DNA of 64,000 nt from an uncultured Methanosarcinales archaeon. GTDB lineage: Archaea; Nanobdellota; Nanobdellia; Woesearchaeales; CAZYIM01. Positions 2,172 to 11,520 of this stretch are shown piece by piece. The position numbers were made by a program, and so were the translations under genes. The notes beneath the pieces are model-generated. The model was not told where the DNA came from. It searched no databases and was given only the letters and a program-made list of their open reading frames with translations. Every line of letters starts with the position of its first letter. Positions within the stretch are counted from its first letter, which is position 1. The stretch spans positions 32,001-96,000 of the forward strand of contig CAZYIM010000002.1 of NCBI GenBank assembly GCA_964647565.1, read 5' to 3'.

Positions 2172-3614
2172 TTGAAAGAGAAGAGGTTTGTTAGTTTTTT
2201 GTTAGTTGTAGTTTTATCTATGGCTTTGGCTCTTGTTTTTTTGGATTTTGTTCCTTCTGGTGGTTTGGCGGGTGTTGGTTTGAGTTGTGATTCTGTTTGT
2301 TTTGATGGTGGTTATAGTCGTGGTTTTTGTTTGCCTGAGAGTGCGGGTTGTGTTATTGAGGGTAGTGTTCATGAGGGTGTTGGTGATGTTTTTTGTTCTG
2401 AGCGGTTGTCTGTTGATTCTTTTTGTTGCTGTTTGGGTATTAGTCAGGATACTGATGGGGACCGAAATGTTTTGACTAAGTCTGTTGGTGTTGAGTTTGT
2501 TTATGCGGTTGGTCAGAGGGTTGCGAAGGTTGAGGGTGAGGATGTTTTCTTTTTTGTGAATGATCATTTGGGTAGTCCTAGGCGGGTTTTGGATGTTGGT
2601 GGTGCTGTTGTTTCTGAGTTGGATTTTTTGCCGTTTGGTGGTGAGATGACTGCTAGTGGTGAGGATTTTAAGTATACTGGCAAGGAGTTGGATTTTGATT
2701 CTGGTTTGCATTATTATGGTGCTCGTTTTTATGATTCTGTTCTTGGCAGGTTTGTTACGCCGGATATTGTTGAAAAGTTTCCTAATCCTTATGTCTATGT
2801 TGCGAATAATCCTATGAGAAATATCGATCCTACAGGTGAGCAGGTTGTGAATCTTGCTGGCCGGCAAAAACAATTAGCAGCCGTAACTAGTTGGACCAAA
2901 AAACACATGCCTGAGCCTGTCTATAATGTCCTGAATTTTGTTTTAGGATTCGATGAGTCTATGGAGACTAGAATGAAGAATTCACTGACAGATATGCTCC
3001 TGCCTATGTCTTCAGTTGAAAAGGTTGCTAAGAAGGGGGGTAGCAAGATACTTGACAAGGTGGGATCCTGGTTTCGGAAAAAGTTCAGATCTGCGCCAGT
3101 TAAGCAATATGGTCCTCATTCTAACAGGGAATTCGGAAGGATATACAACCAATTGCGAGAGTGGGGTGCTGATTGGGAGGCGGACGATTTTCTTAAGCTT
3201 CACCAGGCAGACCAGGTTCAATACGGAGATCTGGGATTTAATGTGTTTGTAAGCAAGAATCCGACTGGAGGATACTGGAAGTCCAGTGATATATTTACTG
3301 ACAGGCTAGGTGGTCGAATCAATCTGGGACCTGAGCTTGGTGTCACAATAATGGATATGCCGCGAGTCCCTTACTTTTGGGGGTTTGGTAGAAAACGAAT
3401 GAAAGATGCCACTGCCTTTGAGGCTTCGGTTGTGATGCACGAACTTCAGCATAAGATGAATCCTGGTATGTCTGAAAAAGGAGTGGTTTGGCAGACCATT
3501 CGTCGAAAGCTAGGGTTGGATGTGGACTACATGCGGCCTAGCGAGGATTTTGTGCTGATTAATAACAGGTTAAGTGATAATTATCTAGACATGGCTAAGA
3601 ACGGTATCAAATGA
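2172..3614 (+). CDS. Rhs-core cassette 1: N-terminal TM/signal, Cys-rich domain, RHS-associated core, HExxH-containing C-terminal tip
   Basis: Hydrophobic N-terminus; CxxxC...FC...CCC domain; NDHLGSPR, FKYTGKELD, LHYYGARFYD, NPYVYVANNPMRNIDPTG; VMHELQH in the tip. Confidence 0.9.
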   Translation: MKEKRFVSFLLVVVLSMALALVFLDFVPSGGLAGVGLSCDSVCFDGGYSRGFCLPESAGCVIEGSVHEGVGDVFCSERLSVDSFCCCLGISQDTDGDRNVLTKSVGVEFVYAVGQRVAKVEGEDVFFFVNDHLGSPRRVLDVGGAVVSELDFLPFGGEMTASGEDFKYTGKELDFDSGLHYYGARFYDSVLGRFVTPDIVEKFPNPYVYVANNPMRNIDPTGEQVVNLAGRQKQLAAVTSWTKKHMPEPVYNVLNFVLGFDESMETRMKNSLTDMLLPMSSVEKVAKKGGSKILDKVGSWFRKKFRSAPVKQYGPHSNREFGRIYNQLREWGADWEADDFLKLHQADQVQYGDLGFNVFVSKNPTGGYWKSSDIFTDRLGGRINLGPELGVTIMDMPRVPYFWGFGRKRMKDATAFEASVVMHELQHKMNPGMSEKGVVWQTIRRKLGLDVDYMRPSEDFVLINNRLSDNYLDMAKNGIK

Positions 3615-3720
3615 AATACATTTTCAAAAACTCACAAAACTTGAGGTTTTGCAAGGCTTTTTATTGCGAAAACTAGCAAAACTTTTTGGTGCGTTTTGAA
3701 GTTTTCCCATCTTTGCGATG

Positions 3721-10127: not shown

Positions 10128-11520
10128 GATGAGAAATGACCGCTTCGTATTGGTGATTGTGGCAGTAGTTGCTATAATTGGCTTGATCTTTGTTTTTCTT
10201 AGTAATAATCTTGGAACTGGCACTGGGTTGGCTGGTGCTGGAATCAGTTGTGCTTCTGTTTGTCATGATGGAGGTTATAGTCGTGGTTTTTGTCTGCCTT
10301 CAAGTGCTGGTTGTGCAATTCCAGGCAGTGTTCATGAGTCTGATGCAGATGTTTTTTGCACTGATAAGTTGTCTATTGATGCTTTTTGTTGCTGTAAGGC
10401 TGGTGTTCAGGGATCTTTAGATGATGATAAAAATGTTCAATCTGTAGAGGTTGGTACTGAGTTTGTCTATGCTGCTGGTCAGAGGATTGCTAAGATACGG
10501 GGTAATGATGTGTTTTTCTTTGTCAATGATCATTTGGGCAGTCCGAGGAAGGTTCTTAATGCTGTTAGTGCTGTTGTTTCTGAGCTTGATTACTTGCCAT
10601 TTGGTACTGAGATGACAGATAGCAATGAGGATTTCAAATATACTGGAAAAGAACAAGACTTGGATAGTGGTTTACATTATTATGGTGCGAGATATTATGA
10701 TGCTGATATAGGCAGATTCATAACTCCTGATACTGTTGAAGCGTTTCCTAATCCGTATGTATATGTTGCCAACAATCCGATGAAGTATATTGATCCCACT
10801 GGACAACAGATAGATTACAACGATGAATTCAAGAAAGCCTGGGGTGAAGGGTTTAGGGTTATTGCAGCGACCGCAGGGGGATCACCAGGTAACCAAAGGG
10901 GGACACAAGGCGCTTGGGAGAGGGTTCAATCGGTAACTCAAGGTTATATGATTGGAGGAGATTTCAATTTAAGGGAATTCGATTTCAAGAACATCTTTGG
11001 TAAGAATTATCATGAAGGTATCGGGGAGAAATGGAGTGATTTTATTCTTGAGGAGACTAAAGACCTTGTCGCACAATCAGGTGCTGAGTATGATACGGGG
11101 ACGACTTGTGCTGGCTTTGGGCTTTACCTTTTGTTCAAGTTCGCAAATAAGATGGATTATGATACTGTTTCCCTGAATCTTGAGCGTGGAGGTGTGAATG
11201 ATAATTGGGTCAGAATTTTTAACAAGGCATCTGTCCGTGAGCTTGAGAGCGATAACAGGAAATGGGGTAATTATAAAGCTACTTTTAAAACTAATAAGGT
11301 CAAGGATTCATGGTTTCAGCAGGGTCCTTTGGCTAGCACTAATAATATTGAAAGGAATTCACGTCTTATTAAGGGATCCGCCAAGACAAGTGGTCTAAAT
11401 AAGCATACTGCTGAAGATATATTGGAACAGCCGGCAGGTACAATCTTGTTTGAATCTCACGAGGGTAGAAGTTGGGGGCACACCACCATAATAATCAATA
11501 AGAATGATGTGCCAAAATAA
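10111..11520 (+). CDS. Rhs-core cassette 2: TM/signal, Cys-rich domain, RHS-associated core, C-terminal tip (possible papain-like Cys/His)
   Basis: Paralogous to 2172..3614 up to NNPMKYIDPTG. The tip is unrelated and contains TTCAGF and WGHTTII. Confidence 0.9.
   Translation: MKKQFKMRNDRFVLVIVAVVAIIGLIFVFLSNNLGTGTGLAGAGISCASVCHDGGYSRGFCLPSSAGCAIPGSVHESDADVFCTDKLSIDAFCCCKAGVQGSLDDDKNVQSVEVGTEFVYAAGQRIAKIRGNDVFFFVNDHLGSPRKVLNAVSAVVSELDYLPFGTEMTDSNEDFKYTGKEQDLDSGLHYYGARYYDADIGRFITPDTVEAFPNPYVYVANNPMKYIDPTGQQIDYNDEFKKAWGEGFRVIAATAGGSPGNQRGTQGAWERVQSVTQGYMIGGDFNLREFDFKNIFGKNYHEGIGEKWSDFILEETKDLVAQSGAEYDTGTTCAGFGLYLLFKFANKMDYDTVSLNLERGGVNDNWVRIFNKASVRELESDNRKWGNYKATFKTNKVKDSWFQQGPLASTNNIERNSRLIKGSAKTSGLNKHTAEDILEQPAGTILFESHEGRSWGHTTIIINKNDVPK

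Follow-up and report, generated by a model that had tools for sequence, protein, structure and literature searches.

Introduction

Tc BC cocoons, such as TcdB2-TccC3 of Photorhabdus and YenB-YenC of Yersinia entomophaga, are the closest described systems to the split Rhs/Tc-like locus reported here, which lies in a 64,000-nt stretch of an archaeal genome (the window; G000:C2:32001-96000). Rhs/Tc cocoons are thought to fold around the toxin as one chain, or as a cytoplasmic TcB-TcC pair. To our knowledge, Tc B and C proteins carry no signal peptides. Rhs effectors linked to a type VI secretion system (T6SS) are single chains on VgrG/PAAR, and no Sec signal is used for their export. According to the accessible part of PMC7861908, several TcC proteins, including orphan TcC, can serve one TcB, and 97.2% of TcC proteins are 851–1,050 aa long. 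The TcdB/TcaC class (signal peptide, SpvB, propeller and RHS repeats) is listed for Euryarchaeota too in the accessible part of Zhang et al. 2012 (PMC3482391). No literature joining DPANN with Rhs on this topic was found by title and abstract, with subscription journals outside the coverage.

The source genome (G000) is 2.68 Mb long in 86 contigs, with a completeness of 87%. The window contains archaeal genes, namely those for an archaeal-type ProRS, an RNA cyclase, a Ski2-like helicase and pilus ATPase/platform proteins. The original prediction, made from the window's letters, called the organism DPANN-like. This fits the sizes of genomes from its order and class (0.5–2.1 Mb), but the source genome is larger.

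The shell is divided among three genes

The predicted four plus-strand open reading frames (ORFs), an upstream C-type gene followed by A, B and C1, were all present, and the start of A had to be corrected. The shell is divided among them. A is the TcB front, B is the rest of the YD shell, and the small C supplies the last strand, the plug ("core") and the tip. The peptide ends were exactly as quoted earlier: A stops after ...KVAYKNWKISGGGN, B stops after ...TTLYVYDMGGNVIYEKTI, and C1 restarts at TEFVYAAGQRIAK, continuing to ...NDHLGSPR...IDPTG. Several features of Rhs/YD-repeat toxins were found, including YD repeats in B, a core ahead of the tip in the C genes and a DPxG boundary followed by unrelated tips. 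Shell, core and tip are not on one polypeptide; they are on three genes with stops and new starts.

Gene B (7617-10127, plus strand) encodes 836 aa and starts with GTG. Its signal peptide, MVYRLIHRICILLMILALFTSFAYA, occupies 7617-7691 and is a hydrophobic stretch with a cut mark before LP. It is followed by a Cys-rich module, hereafter the B-module (7689-8036), and a YD-repeat shell (8040-10124). The shell matched Pfam RHS_repeat PF05593 (E 6.8e-44), DUF6443 (E 2.1e-9) and NCBIfam YD_repeat_2x (TIGR01643, E 2e-33). As predicted, B brings a new signal peptide and a Cys-rich domain and then resumes the YD repeats. At the A–B junction (7603-7619, plus strand), the TAG stop (7615-7617) overlaps the GTG start (7617-7619), giving TAGTG. 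A GGAGG (7603-7607) lies 9 nt upstream, inside the codons of A's tail ...SGGGN.

An unsplit homologue, P0006, holds A and B in one chain of 2150 aa on a 7242-nt contig. A residues 9-1272 aligned to P0006 1-1321 with 44% identity, and B residues 142-835 aligned to P0006 1327-2010 with 50% identity. Only five residues of P0006 (1322-1326) lie between the aligned parts, indicating that a stop, a Shine-Dalgarno site, a start, a signal peptide and a Cys-rich module of about 110 aa have been inserted in the window. In order, this insert of about 420 nt consists of the tail ...SGGGN with its GGAGG, the overlapping TAG and GTG, the signal peptide and the Cys-rich module. The Cys positions of the B-module are kept across three paralogues. 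The alignment argues that the A–B split is no artefact and was made by insertion relative to P0006, and that P0006 represents the ancestral continuity of A and B. An intein or intron at the cut was rejected, as a stop, a start and a signal peptide are all contained in the insert and the conservation is at the protein level.

P0006 ends its shell at the B–C breakpoint (...VYDMAGNVIYEET) and then has its own Cys-rich C-terminal domain and no core. When genome and metagenome contigs were scanned with P0006 and B for the DNA context of P0006, only one bacterial Rhs with 23% identity was obtained. The NCBIfam RHS_core profile NF041261 placed B at positions 414-713 and C1 at 1156-1260. The parts are thus collinear with one Rhs/TcB-TcC shell: P0006 takes A and then B, and NF041261 places B before C1.

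Logan contigs from four public runs were identical to the window where shown, including 2933-4114 and 10080-10548, and reported no indels over 2100-11600. The runs with matching contigs may include the source sample itself. A check of the gene breaks against reads had been proposed. Contigs of runs X1 and X2 bridged 10111-10127, but none of the listed contigs was shown to bridge 7617. A frameshift or an assembly error as the cause of the split was rejected in view of the coding insert, the clean frames and the recurrence in paralogues and relatives. In places, public-run contigs matched only 10690-10723 and 10771-10802 and then ran into other sequence, which would be the expected outcome if the samples contain further Rhs cassettes with the same core motifs.

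C genes have a constant region and variable tips

C1 (10111-11520, plus strand, 469 aa) starts with an ATG inside the end of B and overlaps B by 17 nt (10111-10127); a second ATG is at 10129. It has a 19-residue hydrophobic anchor (10144-10200), a Cys-rich C-module (10222-10410), the last shell strand with the Rhs core (10459-10803; IDPTG at 10792-10803, residues 228-231) and an orphan tip (10804-11517). In the AlphaFold model of C1 the anchor is a helix at residues 9-34 (pLDDT 83–89), and confidence is confined to this helix and the first core strands. Anchor helix, C-module and core were all found, as predicted for a gene with its own membrane or signal segment that resumes at the next expected strand.

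The upstream C gene, C-type gene 2 (2172-3614, plus strand, 480 aa, TTG start), has the same layout and a different tip. Its hydrophobic anchor is at 2187-2243, its C-module with 8 Cys at 2256-2447, its last shell strand and core at 2493-2837 (IDPTG at 2826-2837, residues 219-222) and its tip at 2838-3611, with HELQH at 3438-3452. A third cassette of 460 aa (C8:45834-47216) has the shared constant region and a third tip; it is alone on its contig, near EF-2 and EF-1alpha-like genes. With TIGR03696 (Rhs_assc_core, cut-off 32.5 bits), C1 scored 78.1 bits, the upstream C gene 70.7 bits and the C8 cassette 73.7 bits. All three, 460–480 aa long, keep about 20 shell residues ahead of the core.

Between the upstream C gene and the C8 cassette, DNA identity is 87.8% over 707 nt, reaching from 38 nt ahead of the start as far as the DPxG codons, with no difference in the first ~250 nt. 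An AT-rich, TATA-like stretch (2134-2171, plus strand) is part of this shared DNA. C1 is 75% identical to both other cassettes over ~580 nt ending at DPTG. Alternative C genes were therefore found as proposed: three in one genome, with one constant region and with tips that differ where the DNA homology ends at DPxG.

The tips matched nothing in Pfam, even at E<=10. The C1 tip matched no PDB sequence and had no homologues beyond its own cluster, and the other tip gave only noise at E~1. The best Atlas match for a tip was 0.83 (DUF4300), below the level of a namable lead. We take a Cys/His pair in the C1 tip as papain- or NlpC-like and the HELQH of the upstream C tip as a zinc-protease motif, both being readings from motifs only. 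No immunity gene directly follows the tips: no same-strand ORF comes after C1, where the next genes are convergent, and none lies in the 150-nt gap between the upstream C gene and A. With no immunity-like gene beside the tips, their target is probably another organism (non-self).

The two convergent neighbours of C1 (12653-13945 and 11527-12558, both minus strand) were assigned to no family. One begins in a Tat-like manner, RRRDFLK, and had no Pfam match; its C-terminal ...GADCADFV... and ...NRHVGLL... presumably resemble NlpC/P60 motifs. The start of the second is lipoprotein-like (...MFASNC). When the C1 tip was compared with the 12653-13945 neighbour by BLASTP, the result was E 0.5. Tat export of A, B and C was rejected, with no twin arginine in any of them.

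Gene A is the front of a TcB-like shell

From its sequence, homologues and AlphaFold model, A is a TcB-like shell front whose frame is open from 3739 to 7617 (plus strand). It has a signal-like stretch judged by hydrophobicity (3787-3846; ...WVLVVIALLLLSSIFIYA with the cut mark before DG), an SpvB-like motif (3958-4122), a beta-propeller (about 5062-6174), a Cys-rich insert with 18 Cys in 157 aa (6214-6684) and shell strands (about 6892-7584).

Gene A had been placed at 3772-7617. The frame and end stand, but 3772 is ATA, not a canonical start. The first ATG, GTG or TTG of the frame is GTG 3928, downstream of the signal-like stretch; within the open frame, only ATA codons (3766 and 3772) precede the stretch. 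An in-frame ATG (MRKLFK) at 3718 is followed six codons on by TAA 3736-3738, and contigs of X1 and X2 are identical to this region (3718-3738, plus strand). A TATA-like TTTAAATA is at 3730-3737, just ahead of the signal-like stretch. The homologues P0005 and P0006 keep the stretch, and their called starts fall inside it. Initiation of A may be non-canonical, or may involve re-initiation or readthrough, or the start may be recently damaged.

A search with phmmer against 1.84 billion representatives gave 467 relatives of A at E<=0.001. Among 130 full-size matches listed, the relatives were 1200–3276 aa; fragments of 325–921 aa were also listed. Their consensus has an SpvB-like start and W-rich propeller blades. 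Residues 82-1281 were modeled with AlphaFold from a 25-row alignment. The mean pLDDT was 69.3; the model was good at 1-340 and 960-1190 and below 50 in the Cys-rich insert. Foldseek with the model found mosquito SGS1 and Tc BC structures (E 1.5e-19 to 1e-13). In VIA-align the model matched TcdB2-TccC3 (4o9x) with Z 20.2 (rmsd 3.1, 455 aligned, chain 85-1090), YenB (4igl_C) with Z 20.1 and the SpvB N-domain (6p0x_A) with Z 17.4. The predicted SpvB/TcB-like start of A is therefore borne out by fold but not by Pfam, which gave no match at E<0.01. The structural matches indicate that A is the first three quarters of a TcB. By the model, it is equivalent to about TcB residues 50-1090, and its end corresponds to TcB residue ~1070-1090.

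Other split genes occur in the same genome

A second multi-split Rhs locus runs from G000:C10:67225-70164 into G000:C24:1-9777, in the order C', A', B1, B2, B3. The join of the two contigs is probable and not proven, since they share only 20 nt at their ends. C' (412 aa) has a signal and a core, A' matched SpvB (E 0.0038), and B1 has a signal, a B-module and YD/DUF6443. Every part of this locus has a signal-like start. B3 runs on into cadherin, Big_9 and PKD domains. On contig C62 the locus has two parts, namely a shell of 1993 aa and a C of 408 aa whose start overlaps. Directly after this C gene is a 154-aa multi-pass membrane ORF (G000:C62:921-1385, minus strand), a possible immunity protein.

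The same two Cys modules are also present in a non-Rhs locus outside the window (G000:C2:108341-116600, equal to L033 4341-12600). Its first gene, of 162 aa, has an anchor, a C-module and an acidic linker and ends with ...NNILFNGGFE. The second, of 669 aa, has a signal, a B-module and a CBM_4_9 domain only from profile position 16 on (E 3.2e-4). The two genes are joined by an overlapping stop and start with a GGAGG site, and a 1923-aa secreted protein (PKD, NAGPA) comes next. NGGFE is, we presume, the usual first strand of CBM_4_9. It thus seems that here an insert of the same kind has cut a carbohydrate-binding domain behind its first strand.

Small C genes of relatives carry their own export-type N-termini

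Core matches were found in 16 of 61 genomes of the order sample. In the relatives' loci, TcB-like shell genes of 1773–2241 aa (DUF6531, FG-GAP, TcdB_toxin_midN, RHS repeats) are adjoined by small core-plus-tip genes, and single-chain forms coexist with them. The set comprised 51 core-bearing ORFs in 30 loci of 14 genomes, 47 of the ORFs being <620 aa. A hydrophobic N-terminus was defined as a 15-residue Kyte-Doolittle mean >=2.0 within the first 70 residues. It was found in 43 of the 47 small core ORFs, many with lipobox- or AxA-like ends. Of the remaining four, two were cut by contig ends, one was a fragment and one was an intact gene. In the bacterial control, none of 31 small core ORFs (14 loci) had a hydrophobic N-terminus, and the intact large genes L058, L061 and L063 did. 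The statement that orphan tip cassettes usually lack export signals thus agreed with the bacterial control, in contrast to the archaeal set. An export-type N-terminus was found on each of A, B and C1, in line with the prediction; it is a signal peptide in B and an anchor helix in C1.

In the phylum sample, 59 of 401 genomes had the core at E<=1e-5, with up to 13 per 0.6–0.8 Mb genome. Among the 150 matches listed (46 further ones are unlisted), which include one row from the unpublished genome G386, 11 were in frames >=700 aa, one in a frame of 616 aa and 138 in frames <=561 aa. In the Clostridia-class sample, the core was found in 104 of 300 genomes, and 58 of the 150 matches listed were in frames >=700 aa. 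Small core frames were common there too, as ordinary orphan cassettes. Together with the 0/31 and 43/47 counts, the few fused forms indicated that the archaeal peculiarity is the own export signal and scarce fusions, not small frames.

The search of relatives for the same breakpoints and for more C cassettes was partly successful. C genes were common, and a split shell was found in the closed genome G253, but its break is at a different shell point. The G253 order is C, C, C, a 1898-aa shell, a 1172-aa shell fragment and C. The fragment opens with a signal peptide, next to a Cys-rich module (20 Cys in 200 aa) that the HMM (hidden Markov model) of the B-module did not match. In G210 (L048, G210:C35:54001-66000, at 3502-10142), six tandem C genes follow a single-chain Rhs end, and their signal peptides are joined almost directly to the core (...SSA and then YELEFYHSDHLGS). 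Six genomes of 0.5–1.3 Mb (G077, G264, G321, G335, G388 and G412) have 8–13 small core-plus-tip genes each. PF05593 found no shell in G077, G264 or G335. P0006 found none in G077, G335 or G388, and its shell-like matches were only in G264 (a contig-end fragment) and G412. Given these many-C genomes with no detectable shell, C proteins may act on their own as well. The tree of 55 core domains did not separate fused from small forms, and the single chain L022 (2127 aa) grouped as sister with the small L021 from its own genome (support 98/93).

Discussion

The separate export signals suggest that assembly of the shell takes place outside the cell of a small marine archaeon. We give an even chance to the reading that the locus encodes a working cocoon of several chains, coupled in translation and exported by Sec, with plug and cargo supplied by any one of the three C subunits. 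A, B and C1 would come from a single coupled transcript and be exported through Sec in unfolded form, and the hydrophobic anchor of C would hold it at the membrane. Once outside, the pieces would complete one another's beta-sheet. The core would plug the shell and cut after IDPTG, and the tip would end up enclosed. Any of the three C proteins could take the same place, like several TcC on one TcB, and the Cys-rich modules at the cut sites may aid folding or help the pieces find and dock with one another.

Several observations weigh against this cocoon. No RNA run holding the locus was listed in the public-run search. The signal peptide of A has no canonical start, and its sole upstream ATG is cut off. 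C1 alone models poorly (mean pLDDT 44.3). A word search with the B-module matched only the window's own protein, and HMMs of the B- and C-modules matched no ORF (>=150 aa) in the loci of 30 relatives; by these searches both modules are found only in the source genome. By both shell queries, G077 (13 cores, 99% complete), G335 (12) and G388 (8) have no shell by PF05593 or P0006. Of the 47 small C genes, 17 lie alone and 20 lie beside other C genes only. This script count is rough: the list of shells behind it, made with BLAST, lacked at least one (L040 9194-14890) and took three long C genes as shells. Lastly, we know of no experimental precedent for a tip enclosed by separately exported shell chains.

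The genomes with many C genes and no detected shell would be explained if C proteins act alone, as exported, membrane-tethered pro-toxins with the core as a self-cleaving release module, and if A and B are separate surface proteins such as adhesins or empty shells. We regard this as unlikely, though it has a real claim. It fits the lone C genes that adjoin housekeeping genes in G077 and G264, the solitary third cassette on C8, and the six tandem genes of G210 with the signal peptide directly on YELEFYHSDHLGS. It does not account for the C starts that overlap or abut the shell stop in the window, C62, L013, L032 and L040, where the shell ends at the point at which a single chain would continue, nor for the end breakpoint shared by P0006 and B, neither of which has a core. 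The confidence of the C1 model in its anchor helix and first core strands only also speaks against a C that works by itself. In addition, shells were sought with two sequence queries, which divergent ones could escape.

DNA-level swapping as in classical Rhs loci, with only the B-coupled C1 in use and the upstream C gene and C8 cassette as a recombining reserve, seems improbable to us. The constant 5' region that ends at DPxG, the identical start of the two reserve copies and the mixing of fused and small forms in the core tree, including the L022–L021 pair, fit such exchange as well. Each reserve copy, however, is complete, with a start codon, an anchor, a Cys module and the shared upstream 38 nt, and such N-termini were absent from all 31 bacterial orphan cassettes. 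Swapping of this kind is also compatible with loading at the protein level. Still less credible, and in our judgment very improbable, is a decaying or misassembled single Rhs gene whose breaks are frameshifts or nonsense mutations. The in-frame TAA behind the sole upstream ATG does leave the 5' end of A broken, as decay would. The A–B break, in contrast, is no frameshift but a coding insert whose Cys residues are conserved in three paralogues. No further stops occur across 1281+836+469 codons, the same pattern is seen in the paralogous locus and in other genomes, and the public-run contigs have no indels.

The multi-chain cocoon can be extended to a wider proposal, which we put forward tentatively and hold to be doubtful. 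The Rhs cocoons of this phylum might be built outside the cell from Sec-exported chains, with one shell for many C subunits. In the source genome, a single block that can be reused, made up of a ribosome-binding site, a stop, a start, a signal peptide and the Cys-rich B-module, would have made the cuts at all three split beta-rich surface proteins, namely two Rhs shells and one carbohydrate-binding protein, and would act as a gene-splitting adaptor for re-association after export.

If the multi-chain cocoon is real, a toxin capsule would be assembled, and its cargo chosen, after export. This would be a cheap route to up to 13 different warheads in genomes of 0.6–2.7 Mb. It would also offer a system in which the action of tiny symbiotic or episymbiotic archaea on their hosts or competitors can be tested. 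Judging by the small core ORFs of the 14 genomes, own export signals on the pieces are the rule across this archaeal phylum.

Comparison with known systems

Similar to Tc BC cocoons, the locus has an SpvB-like start, a beta-propeller and an Rhs shell, as the Z scores of the A model indicate, and its tip is behind the core on the last chain. A difference is that it has three or more chains instead of two, with an export-type N-terminus on every chain and Cys-rich modules at the cuts. The cut sites also differ, A ending near TcB residue 1070-1090 and C being one strand plus the core. The Tc BC division into TcB (~1470 aa) and TcC (851–1,050 aa, half of the shell) was not found here, where the C genes are 460–480 aa. 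The TcA-type TcB-binding domain PF18276 had no match in the source genome (87% complete), and the control matched in 0 of 14 genomes.

Single-chain Rhs toxins of the TcdB/TcaC class, to which L022 and P0006 belong, have the same domain order and a Sec-type start; in the present locus that chain is split into pieces, every one with a signal. Classical Rhs orphan cassettes are likewise small frames of a core and a variable tip, and their homology to the main gene stops at DPxG. They differ in the hydrophobic N-terminus, common in the archaeal set and absent from the bacterial one; the cassettes of the window also have a Cys module. T6SS-linked Rhs effectors (PDB 8qjb, 7pq5 and 7q97; abstract of PMC8636562) are alike in the YD shell, core plug and self-cleavage, and the A model matched 8qjb_A with Z 17.6, but they have no propeller or SpvB start.

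The view that the locus has no described equivalent was overstated: going by the accessible part of PMC7861908, one TcB with several or orphan TcC is already described, so interchangeable C subunits are not new. What differs from the known systems is the number and places of the cuts, the reduction of C to a strand, core and tip, the signals on every chain, the Cys modules at the cuts and the phylum-wide prevalence.

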